The notes beneath the pieces were generated by a model that was given only the letters and a program-made list of their open reading frames with translations, did no database searches and was not told the DNA's origin. From NCBI GenBank assembly GCA_001817345.1, contig MHIE01000003.1:29423-80958 (forward strand): a stretch of DNA of 51,536 nt, in the 5' to 3' direction. Below, one piece after another: positions 1-51,536 of the stretch. Source of the stretch: Candidatus Buchananbacteria bacterium RIFCSPHIGHO2_01_FULL_44_11. Lineage in GTDB: Bacteria > Patescibacteriota > Patescibacteriia > Buchananbacterales > UBA6539. How positions within the stretch are numbered: position 1 is the stretch's first letter; the number at the start of each line of letters is the position of its first letter. The translations under genes were made by a program, and so were the position numbers.

Positions 1-159
1 GGTTACCACATCATTAAAGTTGAAGAATTGCTAACTGATGAAGAAAATCAGACAACCCAAGTTAGAGCCAGCCATATTTTAATCAGGGCTTTAGACTTGG
101 AAACTTATTTGGAAGAATTAAAAAAAGAGTCGAATATTTGGCGACTCATAAAAATATAA
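1..159 (+). CDS. C-terminal part of a parvulin-type peptidyl-prolyl isomerase (PrsA/SurA-like), truncated by the window start
   Basis: Frame 1 reads GYHIIKVEE...QVRASHILIR...WRLIKI-TAA; GYHIIKV and ASHILI are parvulin motifs. Confidence 0.8.
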   Translation, partial: GYHIIKVEELLTDEENQTTQVRASHILIRALDLETYLEELKKESNIWRLIKI

Positions 160-42944: not shown

Positions 42945-44204
42945 ATGTCAAGAATAAACCAAAAACAAAAAACAAAAAAAATTATTCTGCCGGTTTTAAC
43001 CATTGCTGGCCTGATTTTGGCTAGTTTTTTTATTCTAGAATTAAACCCGGTTTCGGCCGAAGACCAAGTCCAGGAGCTTAATTCTGAAATCCAGGATAAG
43101 CAACAAGAGATTGACACCTTGCAAAAAGAAATCGATGCTTACCAAGAGCAGATCCAAATCAAACAAAAAGAATCTAAAAGCTTAAAAAACCAGCTGGCAA
43201 TTTTAGAAAACCAAATTGCTAAAATTGAACTGGATATTGAAGCCACCGGTAAAAAAATTGAACAAGCCAATTTAGAAATTCAAAATCTAAACCTGCAAAT
43301 CCAGGACAAAGAAGCGGAAATCAAAAACCAAAAAACTAAACTGTCAGAGTATATCCGGCTGATTGCCCAAAACGACCAGGTCAGCTACTTAGAGGTAATG
43401 CTTAATAACGATTCTTTTTCTGAATTTTTTGATTACATCAAGTACATTGAAGATATTCACGGAGATCTGAACAAAAACCTCAGCGAATTGAAAACTGCCC
43501 GGCAAGAACTGGAAATTCAAAAATCAAACCTGGAGGACAAGAAAAAACAAGAGGAAACTTTAAAAGACGATTTACTGAAACAAAAAGCAGATTTATCGGA
43601 AAAAACTTCCGCCCAAGGATTGCTGCTGGTCCAAAACCGCCTGACGGAAAGACAATACCAAGGCAATCTCTATCAGCTTCAACTGGAACAACAACAGATC
43701 AATTCCGAAATCGCCACCCTGGAAAAAACCGTTCGGGAAGAACTAGAACAGCGAGAGAAAGCCGAACGCTTCCAAGATTTCGGCCCGGCTCGGCTGAGCT
43801 GGCCGGTCAGTCCCGCTCGTGGCATAAGCGCGCTTTTCCACGATCCGGATTATCCTTTCCGCTACATTTTTGAACATCCGGCCATTGACATCCGGGCCGG
43901 TCAGGGCACGACGATTAAAGCGGCCGAAGGCGGCTACGTCGCTAAGGTTCAGTTCCGCGGCGACAAAAGTTACGCTTACATTATGTTAATTCATAATGAT
44001 GGTCTCTCCACAGTTTACGGCCACGTTTCCGGCGTCAGCGTTAAAACCGACGAATACGTCAGCAAAGGTCAGACGATCGGTAAAAGTGGGGGACTGCCCG
44101 GCAGCATCGGCTCAGGTAATTTGTCCACCGGCCCTCATCTTCACTTTGAAGTCCGGCTCAACGGCATTCCGGTTAATCCGCTGGAATACCTGCCGGCATT
44201 TTAG
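42945..44204 (+). CDS. Coiled-coil M23 domain protein (EnvC/murein hydrolase activator-like)
   Basis: N-terminal TM, long heptad coiled coil, HPAID, YGH, TGPHLHFE. Confidence 0.88.
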   Translation: MSRINQKQKTKKIILPVLTIAGLILASFFILELNPVSAEDQVQELNSEIQDKQQEIDTLQKEIDAYQEQIQIKQKESKSLKNQLAILENQIAKIELDIEATGKKIEQANLEIQNLNLQIQDKEAEIKNQKTKLSEYIRLIAQNDQVSYLEVMLNNDSFSEFFDYIKYIEDIHGDLNKNLSELKTARQELEIQKSNLEDKKKQEETLKDDLLKQKADLSEKTSAQGLLLVQNRLTERQYQGNLYQLQLEQQQINSEIATLEKTVREELEQREKAERFQDFGPARLSWPVSPARGISALFHDPDYPFRYIFEHPAIDIRAGQGTTIKAAEGGYVAKVQFRGDKSYAYIMLIHNDGLSTVYGHVSGVSVKTDEYVSKGQTIGKSGGLPGSIGSGNLSTGPHLHFEVRLNGIPVNPLEYLPAF

Positions 44205-44214
44205 TTAAGTTACT

Positions 44215-44646
44215 ATGGTGATTAAAAAAAGAAAAAGTAACAACGATTTAAACGATCTATTGGCCGTTTCTTTTTTTGCCCTGATCGCTTTACTCGCTTA
44301 CGACAAAGACAAAAACCCGGCGGAAATTATCGGCTCTATTGTTTCGGCCTCTTTTATTATTCTGATTATCATCAGCCTAGTGGTTGTCGCCTTACTGTTT
44401 CTTAGATCAGACAAAAACTTAAGATACCGCGGCGAAGAAAAAACTAAAGCCGAGACCCAATTTGTTGACCTGGAATGGGGTCAGGCCTTAAAACACGATT
44501 TGTTGACTTATTTTATTCCCGTCTTAATTTTGAGCCTGCCGATTTTAGCCGGCCAGGTGCCTGATTTTATTGACTTTTTCCAGGCTTTAACCGTATTTTT
44601 ATCTTTGGTTTACTTAAAAATGCTTTATTGGCAAAGAATTTTTTAA
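44215..44646 (+). CDS. Hypothetical 4-TM membrane protein
   Basis: Hydrophobic segments; C-terminal half resembles the next ORF. Confidence 0.7.
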   Translation: MVIKKRKSNNDLNDLLAVSFFALIALLAYDKDKNPAEIIGSIVSASFIILIIISLVVVALLFLRSDKNLRYRGEEKTKAETQFVDLEWGQALKHDLLTYFIPVLILSLPILAGQVPDFIDFFQALTVFLSLVYLKMLYWQRIF

Positions 44647-44651
44647 TTCCT

Positions 44652-44945
44652 ATGGGTCCGATCAAAATAACCTTTCTGACTATTCTGGTTTTGATGGTTG
44701 CCGGTACCGCGGTCTGGCTGAAAAATAAAATCAGAATTATCCAGTATCAGACTGGGCAACTTTCCGCCTCGGCGACGGACTTGCATTGGCGTAAATCTCT
44801 AAAGCATACCTTGATCATGTATCTGGGGCCGGCCCTGATTCTATTTATGCCTTTTATTCTGGCCCAGAAGCCCAATCTGATTGATGTTGGCCAGGCCGCT
44901 ATCGCTTATTTAGCTTTAAACTACTTAAAAAATATTTATCAGTAG
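44652..44945 (+). CDS. Hypothetical 3-TM membrane protein, apparent paralog of the upstream gene
   Basis: W..LKH.L..Y..P.LIL..P...Q.P..ID..QA....L.L.YLK..Y shared with 44215-44646. Confidence 0.65.
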   Translation: MGPIKITFLTILVLMVAGTAVWLKNKIRIIQYQTGQLSASATDLHWRKSLKHTLIMYLGPALILFMPFILAQKPNLIDVGQAAIAYLALNYLKNIYQ

Positions 44946-44986
44946 CGGTGGATAACTGGTCTTGACCGGTTTATTTTTTTATTTTA

Positions 44987-45018
44987 ATATTTAGATAGTT
45001 GTCTAAATATCTAAATAT
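44987..45018 (+). promoter_or_regulatory. Probable ArsR/SdpR autorepressor operator
   Basis: ATATTTAGATAGTTGTCTAAATAT imperfect palindrome plus a repeated TCTAAATAT directly upstream of the ArsR gene. Confidence 0.6.
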
Positions 45019-45047
45019 TCTACCGTTAATCACTAAAAAGAGGGGAT

Positions 45048-45323
45048 ATGCTACTCAATAAAACATGGGACGCCTTAGCCGACCCGACCCGGCGAAAAAT
45101 CCTGGAGCTGCTCAAAAAAAAGGATTTGTCAGTCCAAGAAATCGCCTTAAATTTTGAAATGACCTTGCCGTCACTGTCTCATCATTTGTCCGTTTTAAAA
45201 AATGCCAATCTAGTCACCAGTCTCAGGCGGGGACAGCAAATCATTTATTCGCTTAATCTCAGTGTCTTTGAAGAAGTGGCCAAGGATTTATACGACTTTT
45301 TTAACAAAGCTAAAAAAAGATAA
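45048..45323 (+). CDS. sdpR: ArsR-family autorepressor, SdpR-like
   Basis: ALADPTRRKILELL..SLSHHLSVLK..GQQIIYSLNLSVFEE; upstream of an SdpI gene. Confidence 0.8.
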   Translation: MLLNKTWDALADPTRRKILELLKKKDLSVQEIALNFEMTLPSLSHHLSVLKNANLVTSLRRGQQIIYSLNLSVFEEVAKDLYDFFNKAKKR

Positions 45324-45327
45324 AAAT

Positions 45328-46026
45328 ATGACCAGCCCAGTCAAACCAACTTTTAAAACCGAGGTTTTACCGCTCAGCCTGATTGCCTTGTCAGTGGTTG
45401 CCAGTTTTTATTTTTATGCCAATTTTCCCGACCAGGTGCCGATTCACTGGAATTACCAGGGAGAAATTGACGACTATGCCAGCAAAGAATTCGGCGCTTT
45501 CTTTTTTCCCGCTTTAATTTTAGGCATTTACCTGATGTTTTTATTCATTCCGTTTCTTGACCCCAAAAAAGAGCGCTATCAGGATTTTCGCAAGGCTTAC
45601 CATGTTTTCAAAGCGGCGATTATTATTTTCATGGTTTTAATTTATGGCTACACCGGCTTAGCCGGTTTGGGTTACGACATTCCGATCGCCACGGTTATCC
45701 CGTCAGCCGTCGGCATTTTATGTATCATCATCGGCAATTACCTGGGCAAAATAAAAACCAACTGGTTTATGGGTATTCGCACGCCCTGGACTTTATCTAA
45801 TGACGAAGTCTGGAATAAAACCAACCGGCTGGGCGGCAAAATGTTTATTGTCATGGGTTTAATCATGGTTTTTGCCCCGCTGCTCCAAATGAATAGCGAG
45901 ATTTTCTGGTGGATTTTTATCGTCAGCATCGCCGTTGTCGCCATTATTCCCATTGTTTATTCCTATATTTTATATCGAAAAATTGAAAAAAATACCTCAA
46001 ATCAGCCAAAAAACGACCAGCCATAG
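45328..46026 (+). CDS. sdpI: SdpI family immunity membrane protein (DUF1648 plus SdpI)
   Basis: PDQVPIHWNYQGEID, NWFMGIRTPWTLSNDEVWNKTNRLGG. Confidence 0.88.
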   Translation: MTSPVKPTFKTEVLPLSLIALSVVASFYFYANFPDQVPIHWNYQGEIDDYASKEFGAFFFPALILGIYLMFLFIPFLDPKKERYQDFRKAYHVFKAAIIIFMVLIYGYTGLAGLGYDIPIATVIPSAVGILCIIIGNYLGKIKTNWFMGIRTPWTLSNDEVWNKTNRLGGKMFIVMGLIMVFAPLLQMNSEIFWWIFIVSIAVVAIIPIVYSYILYRKIEKNTSNQPKNDQP

Positions 46027-46031
46027 GACTA

Positions 46032-46060
46032 TTGACAAAATGAAGATTTTGGTATATACT
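46032..46060 (+). promoter_or_regulatory. Sigma70-type promoter of the GC-rich orphan gene
   Basis: TTGACA-17-TATACT. Confidence 0.75.
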
Positions 46061-46238
46061 ACCATAATATTCAGCTAAAATACGCTAGAATACAAAAATT
46101 ACCGAGCTGGATAGAAAGGAGGAAAGCCAGCTCTTTTCACAAGACGCTACTGCGAAGTAGCAAGGGGAATACTTTTTTAGGAGTTAATTTAACTTCTAAA
46201 CAAAGGCAGTAATCCTTTGAGCCAAGAGGAGAGTCATC

Positions 46239-46778
46239 ATGCATCGAACCCGACTGTGTACCTTGGCCATTATGGCCCTTATTGCATTCACGACGAATTC
46301 CGCAACGACCACGGCGCGCGGCGCGACGACCGACGTCGGCATGACGACCCAACATTTGATCATCGGGTCCACCGACTCCGCCCGGCCCGGCACCGCTTCG
46401 ACTCACATGACCGCCTACGACGGCCTGACCCTGGCGTTCGGCACCGATGCCGAGAAGACGTATACCCACGTCAACAATTATGCCACGGCCGGCCAGACCA
46501 AGATCGACGATTACTTCATGTTCTCGACCGCGCCCGACTCCGGGCGAACCTACCAGATGACCGGCGCCATTATGACACCAACCGCGCTGGCCGTCGTTAC
46601 CGACAACCAGAACCTCTACCAATGGACCGGCGGTGACCGCGCCTGGGTGATCGCAACGGCCCGCATGACCGAATTGATCGCTCAACAGGAGCATTTTTCC
46701 GCCTTGGCCACGAGCCAATACGCCGTGTCCACCGGCACCTGCGTCGCCACCCCGACGCGACTCCCGCTCCGATGCTGA
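46239..46778 (+). CDS. GC-rich, Thr/Ala-rich hypothetical exported protein
   Basis: SD GAGGAG; signal-peptide-like N-terminus; strong third-position G/C bias in this frame; terminator 46854-46893. Confidence 0.65.
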   Translation: MHRTRLCTLAIMALIAFTTNSATTTARGATTDVGMTTQHLIIGSTDSARPGTASTHMTAYDGLTLAFGTDAEKTYTHVNNYATAGQTKIDDYFMFSTAPDSGRTYQMTGAIMTPTALAVVTDNQNLYQWTGGDRAWVIATARMTELIAQQEHFSALATSQYAVSTGTCVATPTRLPLRC

Positions 46779-46902
46779 CTGAATGAAGCATTATCCTCTC
46801 CGTCCCCGCTCACGCCATTAGTTAACGCCAAAGCGTTAACCTGACCTTAATCCGAGACGGACCTTACCCCCAAAGGCCCGTCTCTTTCTTTTTATTATTT
46901 TT

Positions 46903-47020
46903 CCCCTCCTTTTTAAGGAGGGGCTAGGCCTGCTTGCCGAAGCCAACGATTTTAGTGAGTTCGGCGCAGGCAAGGGTGGTTTATTAACCCCTCCTAACCT
47001 CCCCTTGAAAAGGGGAGGAA
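46903..47020. repeat. REP-like palindrome pair with an inserted GC-clamped hairpin
   Basis: CCCTCCTT-TTT-AAGGAGGG, GCCTGC..GCCGAA/TTCGGC-GCAGGC, CCTCCCCTT-GAA-AAGGGGAGG. Confidence 0.7.
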
Positions 47021-47043
47021 TTTTAACTTAATATTTTAACACC

Positions 47044-47075
47044 AAAAAAGAAAAGACTCGGGATTCGAGTCTTTT
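47044..47075 (-). terminator. Intrinsic terminator, strongest for minus-strand transcription
   Basis: AAAAGACTCG-GGATT-CGAGTCTTTT with an additional upstream A run. Confidence 0.75.
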
Positions 47076-47079
47076 GCAA

Positions 47080-47680
47080 GGTGCGAAGAAGATGGCCGCC
47101 GATGACTTAATTTCTGCTTTAGAGCAGGAAATTAAGTAATTCGGAAGTCAGCCGGATGACGGCGGCGGCAATCTCCAAGGTGAGCAAGTTCGCTACCAAT
47201 TCCTTATGATGTCTTAAGCTCCGCGGTTTGCTGATAAAGTCCATATGGTTTTGACTTAATAATAGCGGAGGGTAAGACCGCCAGGGGACTAGCCTGGGGG
47301 TAGCGAGTTAACTCGCCTGTTGTCCTCCTTTAACTACCGACTGGAATCGGCAGCTAGAGAAGGGCAACATTTTAGTTTTCAATGACCAAGCGGTAATCTT
47401 TGTCTCGGCCTAAAGAAGACGGCCGGCCGGTCAGGATATTACAATTTTTAGAAAGGCTGGGGAAAGCGCAGATACGCTTCCCCTAAGTGCAACGGCAGAA
47501 GAGAGCTCAATTGACCGTGGCTGGCCAGTTAGACGAACGGTGACCATTTTTCTTTCTAGCCACAAAACGACCGCGGTCGTAACCGCGGTTGATGGCTCAA
47601 TTGAATTGTCTGGTTTTAGTATAACACAACCCCGGTTACATCTTCTGCCTGTTGTCAAACAGCATAGACGTGCCAGTTTG
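47080..47680. ncRNA. Candidate large structured ncRNA (~600 nt), family not recognised
   Basis: Consecutive hairpins and multi-way junctions across the interval; no convincing ORF. Confidence 0.45.
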
Positions 47681-47806
47681 TGTTTATATTGTTTTGTTTT
47701 AGCGAATATTTTTAAATTTAGCTTATCTAACCTGCCTACCGATGAAGACGAAGAATCGCTGGAAAAGTTACAGCCCCAAAAACGGCTAATTGATAACAGT
47801 TAAATT

Positions 47807-48751
47807 TCAGTCTTTTTTTAAGGGATGAAATTTACCATGGGTTTCTTCGGCGTATCTGTCCGAAGCGTGGACATAACGGGTGGTGGTGTCCAGTGACTCG
47901 TGGCCCAATAAAATTTGGATCGCCGCCGGATTGGCGCCGTTTTCGGCTAAATAAGTCGCAAAACCGTGGCGCAGGCCGTGAGCCGAAATCGGAATGTTGA
48001 TTTTTAGTTTCTCCCGGTAAAACTTAATTCGTTCTTGCAAATAATTAGTCGAAATCCGTCGTTTATATGCGGCTTTATCATTAGCGTTACTACCGCGATA
48101 GGGAATAAACAGCGCCTGCAAATTATCAGTCCGGTGTTTCAGGTAACTATTGAGATGATTGAACGCCCGGGGTGTCATATAGACAAAACGCTGCTTTTTG
48201 CCTTTACCTTGGATAAAAATCCGACCGGTATGATCAATGTGGGCCCGATTCAGACTTAGCAACTCGGAAATACGCATGCCAGTTGAGAAAAGCATTTCCA
48301 GCATCGCTCGGTTTCGATCGGCCACCGCTTTATTATTTTCCAGAACGCTGGGTGATTCGATCAGTTTCACCAGTTCATCCATTTCAGCGACGTGAGCGTG
48401 CTTGCGTTCGGTTTTGACCAATTTAACTGCTTCGGGCGGAATTGGTGTTTTAATATCCATTTCAATCAAATACTTTAAATACGAACGTAAACTGGATAAA
48501 AAACGGTTTAAGGAATAGCTTTGCAGTTTTTTATGAGTCACTTGATCTTCGGCGGTTTTCCGGTCAATGGAATTTAAATAAGCTTTGTAGCGGTTAATCG
48601 CCTGCTTATCAACCTTAGAAAAGGGGATAGCCGTCTCTGTAAGGAAATTTTCAAAAACTTTCAAATCCCGTTCATAATTATAAACAGTTTCATCGGAATA
48701 ATGTTTATCCAAAAGATGCTGATGAAAACTGGCAAGGTAAGGTAAATTCAT
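47807..48751 (-). CDS. Xer-like tyrosine recombinase (downstream copy)
   Basis: N-terminal SAM-like domain; LFSTGMRISEL, GKGKKQR, HGLRHGFAT, LLGH, TTTRYVH (catalytic R-K-H-R-H-Y intact). Confidence 0.93.
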   Translation of the reverse strand: MNLPYLASFHQHLLDKHYSDETVYNYERDLKVFENFLTETAIPFSKVDKQAINRYKAYLNSIDRKTAEDQVTHKKLQSYSLNRFLSSLRSYLKYLIEMDIKTPIPPEAVKLVKTERKHAHVAEMDELVKLIESPSVLENNKAVADRNRAMLEMLFSTGMRISELLSLNRAHIDHTGRIFIQGKGKKQRFVYMTPRAFNHLNSYLKHRTDNLQALFIPYRGSNANDKAAYKRRISTNYLQERIKFYREKLKINIPISAHGLRHGFATYLAENGANPAAIQILLGHESLDTTTRYVHASDRYAEETHGKFHPLKKD

Positions 48752-48753
48752 AC

Positions 48754-49263
48754 TCAAAATGTTTCAAATTCAAGTAAAGTGCGCTCAGCCGGAATGCATA
48801 GAAAAATACAGTTCTTCATTGTCGAAAGATTAATCCACATCTTATAGATTGATACCGTCCCAACTTCGACATACAAGTCTTTTTTACCGTCATAAAATAC
48901 CCCCAAGTCGGCACGACCGTTATTTAAAATTGGTTCAGTTGTTACATCAAAACCCTGTGTCGTAAAATATGTATCAATCATATTCATCATACCCTGATGC
49001 CATTCTTTACCATGCTTATGCTTGGTATCACCCAATTTCGAAGATTCTCCCCAGAAATTAGCTTTGTAATTATCCAATTTACGTGCTTTAATTTTTCCAC
49101 TAACAATCATTAAAGCAATCTGTCGATAAGCAAATTCATCACAATGCTGACAACTATCACGACTACCCCACGAAGCAATAAGTTTTTTTAACCAGCTAAT
49201 TTCATCCGAAATCTTTTTTTCGACAATATGCCAAGGTAAATCTGTTCGTCTAACTTGATTCAT
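48754..49263 (-). CDS. Hypothetical protein with a PD-(D/E)xK-like nuclease motif
   Basis: H...GFDVTTE..GRADLGV...YVEVG pattern; CxxC (CQHC); AT-rich. Confidence 0.5.
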   Translation of the reverse strand: MNQVRRTDLPWHIVEKKISDEISWLKKLIASWGSRDSCQHCDEFAYRQIALMIVSGKIKARKLDNYKANFWGESSKLGDTKHKHGKEWHQGMMNMIDTYFTTQGFDVTTEPILNNGRADLGVFYDGKKDLYVEVGTVSIYKMWINLSTMKNCIFLCIPAERTLLEFETF

Positions 49264-49275
49264 TTCAATAGCTAA

Positions 49276-49743
49276 TTAAATTAATCTAAATAAAAAAAAT
49301 AAAACTAGGATAGAGCCAGAAACATACAAAAAGTTAATGAGATGAAAAATTGGATCACTAGCTTTGGGTTCTTTTTTGGTAATCTTTTTGTAGTCATTTG
49401 CCTCTGTTCCATCCAATTGTTCCCCTTGCTGAACTTTATAAAAAAAATAATATTTTCGTTTTAATTGAGACAATTCAAGAGATGAAATATACCAAAAATA
49501 TAATGGTATCGCAACAAAATTAATTGAAATCATTGCAAGTCCAACCAAAGCGAAATTTGAGACAGTGGTTATAAATTTTTGAACAACTAAAGTTATGATG
49601 CCCACCGCCTGAACTGTGCTAGTTGTATAAACTGAAATTAGAAACTTACGCCGCATATTGAGAGATTTCAAACCTATGTCGGCAATATCAGCAATATTTT
49701 TTTCAAGATTCTCATGATTAAAAGTATATAATTTATTGTTCAT
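49276..49743 (-). CDS. AT-rich hypothetical membrane protein (about 3 TM)
   Basis: Two adjacent hydrophobic helices plus a C-terminal one; composition differs from the core genes. Confidence 0.6.
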   Translation of the reverse strand: MNNKLYTFNHENLEKNIADIADIGLKSLNMRRKFLISVYTTSTVQAVGIITLVVQKFITTVSNFALVGLAMISINFVAIPLYFWYISSLELSQLKRKYYFFYKVQQGEQLDGTEANDYKKITKKEPKASDPIFHLINFLYVSGSILVLFFLFRLI

Positions 49744-49778
49744 ATAGTTTAGTACTTCTTTCAACCAATTACAAAAAA

Positions 49779-50750
49779 TTATTTTTTTAATTTCCTGCCA
49801 CTGTGAAAAGCCCGATGGACATCCCGCAAATGCTGGCTGGTGACATGCGTATAAATCTGTGTTGTCACAATATTGCGATGACCCAAAAATTCCTGAATGG
49901 TGCGCAAATCAACACCCTGCTCAAGCAGATCGGTGGCATAAGAATGTCGCAGCGTGTGCGGCGTTGTACTGATAGGTAAACCAGCAATTTTAACGTAGTC
50001 TTTGATTAAACGCTCCACCGAGCGTGTTGTCAACCGTTTCGTCTCGGCCTTTTTATCTTTGCGAAAATTTACAAACAATGCTGGATCAAAGTCTTTTCTA
50101 AGACTCAAATAGCGGTCAAGCGCCTCAAGTGCCCGTGGGGAGAAGTAAACGGTCCGGGTGTAGCCTCCTTTACCGGTAATGGGTAATTCTAAATCAGTGA
50201 CACCTCTTTTTTTGATATATTCAATATTAATTTGGTCTCGATTTAAAGCCACCAATTCACCAACACGCATTCCGGTACTAAATAATACTTCCAAAATTGC
50301 TCCGTCACGTAGATCAATAATTGTTTTTCCGGCAGGGGATAGGAGTAGGCGCTCGACCTGATCAATACTTAAAAAAGAGACTTTTTTGACACTTTTTTCA
50401 CGAACCAAAATTATTTTATCTGCCGGCAAAGCGACGATGTCCTTTGCGGCAAAGTATGTTAAAAGTGCTCGCAAAGCAATTAAATAATAATTTTGAGTCG
50501 TTTTTTTTAAATATCGTCCGTCCTTAGGGCTTTTGCTACGGGATAGAAAGAGGCGATAGCGATAAATGTGCTCACTAGTTAACTCGTGAGGTTTAAGGTT
50601 ATCCAAGCCTTCTTTAATTAGCCAATCGGTAAAACGTTTTAAAAATCGCCCATAATTCTCAACGCTGTTCGAAGACAACCCTTTAACAACATCACTATAA
50701 TCCAAAAAGTCCGTAATATGCTTTACTAGAGGAGTAGCAGATTTATTCAT
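49779..50750 (-). CDS. Xer-like tyrosine recombinase (upstream copy, XerC/D-like)
   Basis: LFSTGMRVGEL, TGKGG, TPHTLRHSYAT, DLRTIQEFLGH, TTQIYTHV. Confidence 0.94.
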   Translation of the reverse strand: MNKSATPLVKHITDFLDYSDVVKGLSSNSVENYGRFLKRFTDWLIKEGLDNLKPHELTSEHIYRYRLFLSRSKSPKDGRYLKKTTQNYYLIALRALLTYFAAKDIVALPADKIILVREKSVKKVSFLSIDQVERLLLSPAGKTIIDLRDGAILEVLFSTGMRVGELVALNRDQINIEYIKKRGVTDLELPITGKGGYTRTVYFSPRALEALDRYLSLRKDFDPALFVNFRKDKKAETKRLTTRSVERLIKDYVKIAGLPISTTPHTLRHSYATDLLEQGVDLRTIQEFLGHRNIVTTQIYTHVTSQHLRDVHRAFHSGRKLKK

Positions 50751-50752
50751 AT

Positions 50753-50780
50753 ACGTCTATTAACCTATATTATGCGACAT
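50753..50780. other. dif-like 28-bp recombination site (11-6-11)
   Basis: ACGTCTATTAA-CCTATA-TTATGCGACAT; arms are 7/11 inverted, with TAA/TTA flanking a 6-bp spacer; TTATGCG matches the E. coli dif XerC arm. Confidence 0.65.
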
Positions 50781-50787
50781 TACTATT

Positions 50788-50816
50788 ATTTTATAAAACA
50801 GCCCAAAATCAGTCAA
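50788..50816 (-). promoter_or_regulatory. Promoter of the recombinase operon
   Basis: TTGACT-17-TAAAAT on the minus strand; DnaA box TTATCCACA at 50823-50831. Confidence 0.7.
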
Positions 50817-50822
50817 CTGGAC

Positions 50823-51536
50823 TTATCCACATAAAGCCTGAATTTCTGATTCCAGACGAATTAATTTATTGCCCTCTAGACCCAAGCGCTTGAATTGATT
50901 CTGATAATTAAGCAGGTCTTTGCATAAAACCACACCTTGGCTTAAAAAATAGCGTTTCTGATCGTTATTTAAGGTCACTAGACTAGTCAACGGGTATAAA
51001 CCTTCAGCTTCGACAAAATTCTGCAAACTTGAGCCGGCCGGATAATCCCAGCTGGTAACTTTAACCCCGGCGCAAAGACCGTATTTTCTGACTTCACTGG
51101 TGACTTTGGTGTTAGTGACAAGCCAGCTTTGCAATTCCCCGCTTTGGGGCTTAGCCCCGATTTTACGTTTTGCGACCCATGCGTTATTAATATCCATGAA
51201 CCGAGCATGGGTGTATAAAATGTCTTTACTGCCGGTTTTAGCACCCGGTCTGACATGGAATTTACATTCAACGATGGCGTGGATGTTTTCTGCCGGAATT
51301 TCCGCGACGACGTCAATTTCATGGCTTAAACAGCGGCCCTGGAAAATCTGATTAATCTGAACCTGGTAACCTTGTTTTTCCAATAAAGCGGCAAAATATT
51401 TCTCAAACGGAAAGCCGCTTGGCCCCAAAGCCATAATCGCCCGCTTCAAATTATACCGAGCGGCATAATGAGCGCCGCTGGCTTTCAGCAAACTAAAAGC
51501 CAGCCGATAAATAGTAGATGTACTCATACCCGGCCG
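50823..51536 (-). CDS. Mrr-like restriction endonuclease family protein (probably ATP-cone fused), truncated by the window end
   Basis: LGPSGFPFEKY, HEIDVVA, VECKFH, LVTNT; the frame stays open to the window edge. Confidence 0.8.
   Translation of the reverse strand, partial: RPGMSTSTIYRLAFSLLKASGAHYAARYNLKRAIMALGPSGFPFEKYFAALLEKQGYQVQINQIFQGRCLSHEIDVVAEIPAENIHAIVECKFHVRPGAKTGSKDILYTHARFMDINNAWVAKRKIGAKPQSGELQSWLVTNTKVTSEVRKYGLCAGVKVTSWDYPAGSSLQNFVEAEGLYPLTSLVTLNNDQKRYFLSQGVVLCKDLLNYQNQFKRLGLEGNKLIRLESEIQALCG

Follow-up and report, generated by a model that had tools for sequence, protein, structure and literature searches.

A probable chromosomal dif site in front of a Xer-like recombinase gene in Candidatus Buchananbacteria and related Patescibacteria

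The stretch of DNA analysed here, referred to as the window, comprises 51,536 nt of contig MHIE01000003.1 (positions 29,423-80,958) from Candidatus Buchananbacteria bacterium RIFCSPHIGHO2_01_FULL_44_11 (GCA_001817345.1). The source genome, G000, is a draft of 943,148 bases in 30 contigs that is 78% complete. A 28-mer at 50753-50780 of the window, directly in front of the gene rec1 encoding a Xer-like tyrosine recombinase, is very probably the chromosomal dif site of a single-recombinase Xer system in Patescibacteria, the candidate phyla radiation (CPR). A sequence-only reading of the window had proposed the 28-mer as a candidate chromosome dimer resolution site, and its conservation, its position at the terminus and its presence as a single copy agree with this. 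In this model, each of the two near-palindromic 11-bp arms of a site would be bound by one rec1 monomer. After synapsis of two sister sites, the strands would be exchanged across the 6-bp central region, and a chromosome dimer would in this way be converted to monomers at the replication terminus. FtsK probably assists, as it is present in relatives together with its gamma domain. The analysis is wholly comparative, with genes called in scripts by longest-ORF (open reading frame) heuristics. It covers the architecture of the site, its uniqueness, its conservation and the covariation of its arms, its linkage to the gene, its position at the terminus and the catalytic motifs of the recombinase, and from these we infer binding, recombination, FtsK dependence and autoregulation. 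The features that carry the argument are the following:

50753..50780, minus strand: putative dif-type core site, unique in the genome, with a matrix score of 36.4-37.5 bits
50780..50770, gene strand: left arm, ATGTCGCATAA
50769..50764, gene strand: central region, TATAGG
50763..50753, gene strand: right arm, TTAATAGACGT
49779..50750, minus strand: rec1, Xer-like tyrosine recombinase of 323 aa (Pfam Phage_integrase, 1.3e-36, and an N-terminal SAM-like domain)
50788..50816, minus strand: predicted sigma-70-type promoter, TTGACT-17-TAAAAT, with 10/12 consensus matches

The plus strand at the site reads ACGTCTATTAACCTATATTATGCGACAT, which on the gene strand gives ATGTCGCATAA-TATAGG-TTAATAGACGT. 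A dif site is expected to have imperfect inverted arms of 11 bp around a centre of 6-8 bp, and the build found is 11-6-11, with arms that pair as inverted repeats at 7/11 positions and differ at 4/11. The ATG of rec1 at 50750 is two bases from the site. When up to three mismatches are allowed, the 28-mer has one match in the window, against none in 100 shuffles, and one in the whole G000 draft. The site is therefore present as a single copy, as expected for dif, in the 78% of the genome that the draft represents. In four of five large relatives the core pattern is likewise single at zero mismatches, and the fifth has a spacer variant that falls outside the pattern.

Three other places in G000 (C15:4955, C19:37397, and C24:1810) were considered as dif copies and rejected, as they share a promoter and leader and resemble the left arm alone. 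At each of them the shared promoter, which in the C15 and C24 copies is TTGAAT-16-TAAAAT, is followed by GGGTTCGCATAATACTAGT(T/C)AG, similar to the left arm of the CPR dif consensus. This element may be a common leader. The C15 copy adjoins another tyrosine recombinase gene.

Of 41 genomes from its family, order and class, 39 contain relatives of rec1. More than 443 relatives were obtained by scanning species-representative genomes, and the best 80 of them have 54-72% identity and come from many CPR groups (named Doudna-, Magasanik-, Falkow-, Komeili-, Staskawicz-, Wildermuth- and Gribaldobacteria, and Paceibacterota). An 11-6-11 element is found upstream of the orthologs, examples being GGTTCGCATAA-TTATAG-TTAAGCGAACA and ACGTCGTATAA-CATAGA-TTAAGAGACGT. 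A matrix of 31 columns built from these upstream regions has the consensus AACTTCGCATAATATAGATTAAGCGACGTTT, with information peaks on both arms. Its best match within loci of about 9 kb is upstream of the ortholog in 76 of the 80; these matches score 17.8-40.8, and the runner-up never exceeds 11.5. Of the four loci that lack such a match, three have their upstream DNA cut off (L070, L074, and L104) and one has only a half-site (L119). When the matrix was made from half of the loci, the site was found upstream of the gene in all 38 held-out loci. The window site was itself never in the hold-out training set, and a matrix trained on other genomes alone gives it 36.4 bits, compared to 9.3 for the runner-up in the 51.5 kb. 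With the matrix from all 80 loci it scores 37.5 bits, the runner-up place in G000 reaching 16.7. The nearest relatives of rec1 (L051 and L052) have the same right arm, TTAATAGAC. A loose pattern, TCGYATAAN6TTAA, matched 85 of 401 genomes of the phylum, the reversed-pattern control being seemingly about as frequent, although it was not counted. Only about ten of the matches have a convincing spacer when judged by eye, and the site type is not universal in the phylum.

Several records with a CPR-type recombinase and site (L051, L053, L069, L070, L125, and others) have the title "uncultured Gammaproteobacteria bacterium" or "Candidatus Udaeobacter sp.". The taxonomy given for these assemblies looks unreliable.

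The site has the same orientation as the gene in 55 of the 76 loci and is inverted in 21. The gap between the site and the ATG varies from 5 to 1322 nt. Among the 55 same-orientation loci, 39 have a gap of 50 nt or less, and in the 21 inverted cases it is 42-1102 nt; several sites are located 0.3-1.3 kb from the gene. A site that adjoins its recombinase gene, as in the XerS- and XerH-type modules, is thus found in this group as well. The outer positions of the two arms co-vary as inverted repeats. Among 67 distinct sites, positions 4 and 27 are complementary in 75%, against 48% in shuffled data, and none of 2000 shuffles reached 75% (counts: GC 27, TA 23, TC 15, GA 2). Pairs 1-30, 2-29, and 3-28 are likewise above the shuffles, at 0.0015-0.025. 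The sole fixed asymmetry is A/A at pair 9-22 (..CATAA on the left and TTAAG.. on the right). This covariation is the pattern that would be expected of one protein reading both arms. Together with the conservation upstream of the orthologs, it is what is anticipated for a dif site that is kept among relatives and evolves with its recombinase.

In some orthologous loci (L048, L054, L080, L067, L082, L085, and L090) extra palindromes of arm-like words, which may serve as accessory binding sites, are found between the main site and the gene. Among them are tail-to-tail half-sites within a longer hairpin and pairs of the right arm TTAAGCGAAC in inverted arrangement.

rec1 is presumed to be the enzyme that acts on the site. 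Its motifs MRVGEL, GKGG..R, HTLRH, LGH, and IYTH align with those of XerD (1a0p) and XerA (4a8e), and by this alignment the catalytic residues R-K-H-R-H/W-Y are all present. The best solved relatives are P. abyssi XerA (1.2e-33) and E. coli XerD. When it comes to the NCBIfam models, rec1 scores 213.8 bits on XerD (TIGR02225; cut-off 329.6) and 205.6 bits on XerC (TIGR02224; cut-off 335.15). It is thus Xer-like, but is not filed as either. It is also below the cut-offs of the archaeal XerA model (183.9 against 220 bits) and of the XerS model (NF003462; 111.7 against 267 bits). In a tree of 32 sampled proteins, from which ORFs without the H.LRH and LGH motifs were left out, rec1 belongs to a clade of 20 (support 99/96) as sister to a Doudnabacteria protein. 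The recombinases of the same-family genomes, to which its identity is only 45-49%, form a sister clade to that of rec1. A six-frame search with PF00589 found one gene in each of G042 and G044, both genomes of about 1 Mb, one gene and an 86-aa fragment in G041, and two genes in each of G043 and G045. FtsK with the gamma domain was found in four of the five genomes checked (G041, G042, G043, and G012).

The gene cluster of rec1 contains a second recombinase gene:

47807..48757, minus strand: rec2, Xer-like tyrosine recombinase of 316 aa, from a distant clade

The sequence-only reading had assigned the two asymmetric arms of the site to two recombinases. Such a rec1/rec2 heterotetramer, with one arm for each protein as in XerC/XerD, would fit with the presence of two Xer-like genes with complete catalytic motifs in one co-oriented cluster, with the differences between the arms of the window site, and with the recurrence of the order rec1-p169-rec2 in L071, L107, and L121 (p169 is a small gene of the cluster, see below). 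However, a second recombinase adjoins the rec1 ortholog in only four of 124 loci (these three and L052), rec2 groups in a third, distant clade of the tree together with the second recombinase of L071 (100/99), and G042 and G044 have a single tyrosine recombinase each. The arms also co-vary as a palindrome, and the sites of the two-recombinase loci L107 and L121 are as palindromic as the rest. A division of the arms between the two neighbouring recombinases is thus unlikely, with only a small chance of being right, and this part of the earlier proposal finds no support. rec2 is not a conserved partner of the site. A homolog that is 60% identical to rec2 is found at a similar junction in G024.

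The site and its gene are located at the replication terminus, where a dif site is expected. On the 771-kb contig C1 of G041 the GC skew has positive values between about 102 and 569 kb and turns negative past this point; at the site (569,480) it changes from +0.084 to -0.163 at 5 kb resolution. The dnaA gene, at 71.6 kb, is located at the opposite switch. On the 809-kb contig C1 of G042 the gene orientation flips exactly at the site (304,811), where the skew falls from about 0.09 to 0.03, and negative values begin at 380 kb. Sampling of the large contigs took in about half of their length, while the 120 kb around each site were covered in full. Of the 63 loci that extend 3.5 kb or more to either side, 59 have the gene/site pair at a convergent orientation switch. 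In these 63 loci 94% of the upstream ORF bases are co-oriented with the recombinase, while 88% of the downstream ORF bases are opposite; the four exceptions comprise one up+/dn+ and three up-/dn- loci. As a control, sixty 20-kb samples drawn from three genomes contain 574 genes, of which 75 (13%) are at such a switch. In G000 itself the long ORFs of the 147-kb contig C3 are nearly all on the plus strand up to about 75 kb and nearly all on the minus strand beyond, the mean GC skew drops from about -0.01 to about -0.05 across the switch, and the rec1-rec2 cluster is the first gene block past it. Three of the checks named in the sequence-only reading, conservation upstream of orthologous recombinases, position relative to the GC-skew terminus and uniqueness in the genome, have turned out in favour of a dif site.

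A promoter scan places the predicted -10 hexamer 7 nt before the site, and transcription is thus predicted to start near 50781, at about the first base of the site. This prediction agrees with the earlier suggestion that the 28-mer lies between the predicted start and the ATG, and the site would constitute the first 28 nt of the recombinase transcript. The layout with the site as the 5' untranslated region recurs in relatives. Scored as TTGACA-16..18-TATAAT with the -10 ending 3-14 nt before the site, a promoter with at least 10/12 matches is found in 34 of the 55 same-orientation loci, and one with at least 9/12 in 42. The control offsets (-60, -120, -180, and -240) gave 0/54 at the stricter threshold and 1-6/54 at the other. 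The median gap between site and ATG is 24 nt. The scan also found a weaker promoter, TTTATA-17-CATAAT, inside the site; a promoter of this kind, using the CATAAT of the arm as its -10, was discarded as a general feature because it reaches at least 9/12 in just 8 of the 55 loci and is weaker than the upstream one.

Promoter-bound RNA polymerase usually covers a span that includes the first 28 transcribed nucleotides, and since the site is within this span, a bound recombinase would be expected to hinder initiation. The gene's promoter would thus fire straight into the site, and the bound recombinase could damp its own transcription. Autoregulation of the recombinase by occupancy of the site is plausible, because most of the same-orientation loci have a consensus promoter that ends 3-14 nt before the site, and its chance of being real is put at slightly less than even. 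It is not the reason for the conservation of the site, given that 21 sites are inverted and that some are up to 1.3 kb away. Nor is this conservation a promoter effect, as the sites include both 55 that are gene-oriented and 21 that are inverted.

If the palindrome were an operator only, rec1 or another protein would repress the operon from it and no recombination would take place there. The promoter layout and the short median gap to the ATG are compatible with this, as is the situation in the sister clade of recombinases from the same family, where an arm-like 12-mer is part of the promoter. In 18 of 24 sister-clade loci (L008-L031) the gene strand has the sequence G[TC]GTC[GT]TA[AC]AAT in the recombinase promoter, and in 16 of these 18 a -35 hexamer is present 16-18 nt upstream (17 nt in 15), showing that the arm-like word forms the -10 region. 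Against an operator stand the location at the terminus switch, the inverted sites and those at 0.3-1.3 kb from the gene. Furthermore, the 11-6-11 build with 15-19 of 28 positions in common with E. coli dif, and an adjoining gene that encodes a tyrosine recombinase with complete catalytic motifs, are features of a recombination site. The probability of a pure operator is therefore judged to be very low, slightly lower than that of the divided arms. As for the transcribed palindrome, its place at the very start of the predicted transcript might suggest that it acts as a hairpin in the leader of the mRNA. The fold computed for the predicted leader is no better than those of its shuffles (-7.4 kcal/mol, z = -0.49), and inverted and distant sites are equally conserved, so that this explanation has next to no credibility compared with that of a dif site.

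The promoter of the sister clade typically has the form TTGGCA-17-TAAAAT preceded by GTGTCG, and several of the genes look leaderless. TGTCG precedes TAWAAT only once in 3109 cases in G000. The possibility that the arm-like word GTGTCGTAAAAT is a generic promoter element was dismissed, as there are 0-3 copies per genome in the 41 genomes; the reversed word, used as control, has two matches over all 41 genomes and both strands. In two loci (L012 in G013 and L014 in G012) there is a leader of about 70 nt between the promoter and the ATG with repeated GGTAG and the complement CTACC. A structured leader may precede the sister-clade recombinase gene here.

On the minus strand of the window the order is the Mrr_cat-like gene, the site, rec1, p162, p169, and rec2. 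The features around the site and the recombinase genes are:

50823..51527, minus strand: Mrr_cat-like gene (Pfam Mrr_cat, 1.7e-4), ending 42 nt before the site
49276..49764, minus strand: p162, predicted membrane protein of 162 aa, about 30% GC
48754..49263, minus strand: p169, 169 aa, of no known family, with a conserved GRADLG...YVEVGT motif
46027..47806, no strand: convergence gap of 1.8 kb with hairpin repeats, having plus-strand genes on its left (to 46026) and minus-strand genes on its right
46239-46778, plus strand: ORF of 179 aa at the convergence point, 60-64% GC, with a hydrophobic N-terminus

As the genes on the left of the convergence gap are on the plus strand and those on the right on the minus strand, the gap is the terminus-like junction of the contig. 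The convergent junctions of the same-family genomes G012 and G014 and that of G000 have their flanking genes in common: an ArsR-like gene and a gene encoding a 254-aa membrane protein on one side (60-75% identity), and an Mrr-like gene and two further genes on the other. In G014 (L035, C8 at about 207,691) the Mrr-like ORF is followed after 31 nt by a GTGTCGTAAAAT-type motif that is oriented like the window site, which starts 42 nt after its own Mrr-like gene; the two Mrr-like homologs are 55-58% identical. The window site occupies the ancestral terminus slot of the family. In G000 this slot has a different right arm, an attached recombinase gene and about 5 kb of extra genes, while the junction in G012 and G014 is about 1 kb without genes of the rec1-rec2 cluster. 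This could have come about by replacement of the family's own site with a dif-xer cassette, or by loss of the linkage in the relatives.

At the terminus switch of G012 (L034, C1 at about 144,320) a second GTGTCGTAAAAT-type copy is part of an 80-nt palindrome, in which two back-to-back sites would have spacers of 5 and 10 nt. Five further genomes (G003, G007, G018, G009, and G017; loci L032, L033, L036, L041, and L042) have second GTGTCGTAAAAT copies inside tRNA gene clusters. These have the upstream context TTTAGCCAAAAATAA... in common and no ORF directly downstream; in L033, L036, L041, and L042 the word is found 100-180 nt beyond the 3' end of the tRNA, on the opposite strand.

The extra genes in G000 raise the question of whether the 28-mer is an attachment (att) site or the end of a mobile cassette, consisting of rec1-p162-p169-rec2 and cargo, rather than a dimer resolution site of the host. 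Besides the 5-kb difference at the syntenic junctions, both the nearest relatives of rec1, which are found in other classes (72% identity in Doudnabacteria, only 45-49% within the family), and the odd composition of p162 and p169 (30-36% GC) and of the ORF at 46239-46778 (60-64%), in a genome of 44% GC, are consistent with such a cassette. However, an integrated element is expected to be flanked by copies of its site, and the window contains no second full copy, half-copy or right-arm copy; the runner-up matrix match is only 9.3 bits, and a repeat search of the window gave nothing relevant. The four non-recombinase ORFs, i.e., p162, p169, the Mrr-like gene and that at 46239-46778, have no match to phage or defence families. 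The same gene/site pair is at the convergent switch in 59 of 63 other loci, and the rec1 ortholog is the only tyrosine recombinase of G042 and G044. Contigs assembled from four metagenomic DNA runs over 44000-51536 bridge the site and have no alternative join there; a single weak joint, from 50507 to 50750, has sides of 26-34 letters and is below the reliability advice of the tool. A dif-xer module that moves between lineages would in any case still function as dif. The alternative of the sequence-only reading, an att site of an integrated element, is thus improbable as the function of the site, about as much so as the heterotetramer, although the part of it that concerns mobility survives: the cassette may have moved into G000.

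Some observations weigh against a dif site served by rec1. The covariation counts are from related sequences, and the shuffle figures therefore overstate the independence of the observations. The promoter and the transcription start are consensus predictions, and the ten sequencing runs listed for this stretch of DNA include none of RNA. A second copy of the site in G000 is possible, the draft being 78% complete and in 30 contigs, and FtsK was not found in this incomplete draft. On G000's own contig the skew drops without changing sign, and between the orientation switch and the site there are 3-4.7 kb with cargo genes. G000 has at least four further tyrosine-recombinase-like genes, rec2 included. 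The same-family genomes have a different site type (GTGTCGTAAAAT...) at the syntenic junction, and the recombinase gene of G012 (720 kb) is 576 kb from its terminus switch (about 144 kb); the linkage of site and gene is thus not universal, and the cassette in G000 may be a recent arrival.

In a more far-reaching scenario, dif-xer cassettes would be self-contained, exchangeable units that are passed between CPR lineages. The site would make up the first 28 nt of the recombinase transcript, so that Xer expression would be tied to the occupancy of dif. The cassette of G000 would have landed at the ancestral terminus junction by the Mrr-like gene, while its relatives keep their recombinase elsewhere, with an arm-like half-site on its own -10 box. 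As a whole this scenario is tentative and rather doubtful.

Several Xer systems resemble the one proposed here. In streptococci and lactococci, XerS/difSL also consists of one recombinase with the site just upstream of its gene, in a module at the terminus (PMC1914069; PMC5357621). However, difSL is 31 bp with an 11-bp centre, while the site described here is 28 bp with a 6-bp centre, and rec1 is nearer to XerD and XerC than to XerS. One speculation about difSL is that it is located in the promoter or behind it and autoregulates xerS; another is that it protects against insertions (Le Bourgeois et al., PMC1914069). The linkage of site and gene was named a likely hallmark of single-recombinase systems in a review (PMC5357621). 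The XerH/difH system of Helicobacter and Campylobacter likewise has a single recombinase, a site near the gene and FtsK (PMC5357621). XerH has 354-362 aa and is about 26% identical to XerCD, while rec1 has 323 aa and is XerC/D-like, and the difH arms as quoted in the same review, AGTTATGAAAA and AAAAGTTTGA, are unlike the arms here. In archaea, a single XerC/D-like recombinase, XerA, acts with a conserved 28-bp site in the terminus region (PMC2958812). Although rec1 is below the XerA cut-off, XerA is its best solved-structure match. The archaea have no FtsK according to the same account, whereas the CPR relatives do, and the passages of PMC2958812 drawn on here do not describe the archaeal dif as adjoining xerA, as the site does rec1.

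The E. coli XerCD/dif system has the 11-6-11 build and the same catalytic motifs, and its FtsK has a counterpart in the FtsK gamma domain of the CPR relatives. It uses two paralogous recombinases encoded far from dif, whereas there is one here, linked to its site and below the equivalog cut-offs of both XerC and XerD. When the CPR matrix was run on both strands of an 8-kb stretch of the E. coli terminus, the top match was GGTGCGCATAATGTATATTATGTTAAAT at NC_000913.3:1590749-1590776. We take this to be E. coli dif, as it is the 28-mer quoted as such in the sequence-only reading; it is not annotated in the record. It has 15 of 28 positions in common with the window site, 18 with the CPR consensus and 19 with a site of the Falkowbacteria type.

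A "Cand" subgroup of simple tyrosine recombinases has been described as Xer-related and from "Candidate" phyla (Smyshlyaev et al., 2021, PMC8138268), and rec1 probably belongs to it. The passages on this subgroup drawn on here give no recombination site, genomic position or module structure. Full-text literature searches combining dif, Xer or dimer resolution with CPR, Patescibacteria, Saccharibacteria or candidate phyla gave, among the papers listed, no description of such a site in CPR.

When it comes to the remaining genes of the cluster, p162 has no homolog in any of the 124 related loci and looks like lineage-specific cargo. A p169 homolog is found directly downstream of the rec1 ortholog in five of the 124 (L050, L071, L095, L107, and L121), and in three loci a member of this family lies between the recombinase and a rec2-type recombinase. 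The core of the family, HG..WH ... EP....GRADLG ... LY[VI]E[VI]G[TK], possibly points to a PD-(D/E)xK nuclease fold; p169 had no match in Pfam, NCBIfam, PHROG, or PADLOC, and the Atlas gave hypothetical clusters alone. The only exact copy of GTGTCGTAAAAT in G000 is found within the p169 coding sequence (48957-48968, plus strand); its orientation is opposite to that of the main site, and it precedes rec2 by 200 nt. This "Site B" was rejected as an inversion partner since the underlying codons are not conserved in the five p169 homologs, and the copy is probably due to chance. The 60% homolog of rec2 in G024 (L044) also has GTGTCGTAAAAT upstream, inverted. The 46239-46778 ORF matches no family in NCBIfam, PHROGs, or PADLOC and looks horizontally acquired. 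Within the convergence gap a hairpin-rich stretch at about 46772-47023 (CCCCTCC...GGAGGGG type) has about 7-fold excess of summed contig depth in the four metagenome runs, and the contigs have variable joints and many loose ends there, as expected for a short repeat common to many genomes. Rfam models found three tRNAs in the window, all distant from the site, and nothing else.

The system described is of a known kind, represented by XerS/difSL and XerH/difH, and extends this kind to a new lineage without adding a new mechanism. CPR bacteria make up a large share of bacterial diversity, and almost all are uncultured, with a chromosome biology inferred from genomes only. The arrangement with a site at the terminus, in front of a recombinase gene, is common to many of these related uncultured bacteria. 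A recognisable dif site would be a sequence marker of the replication terminus in CPR genomes, of help in assembly checks and in coverage-based estimates of replication rates. The layout of promoter, site and gene makes the old hypothesis of autoregulation of linked dif-xer modules testable with a small, portable cassette. The results also suggest that the minimal cells of CPR bacteria may resolve chromosome dimers with one XerC/D-like enzyme and FtsK.

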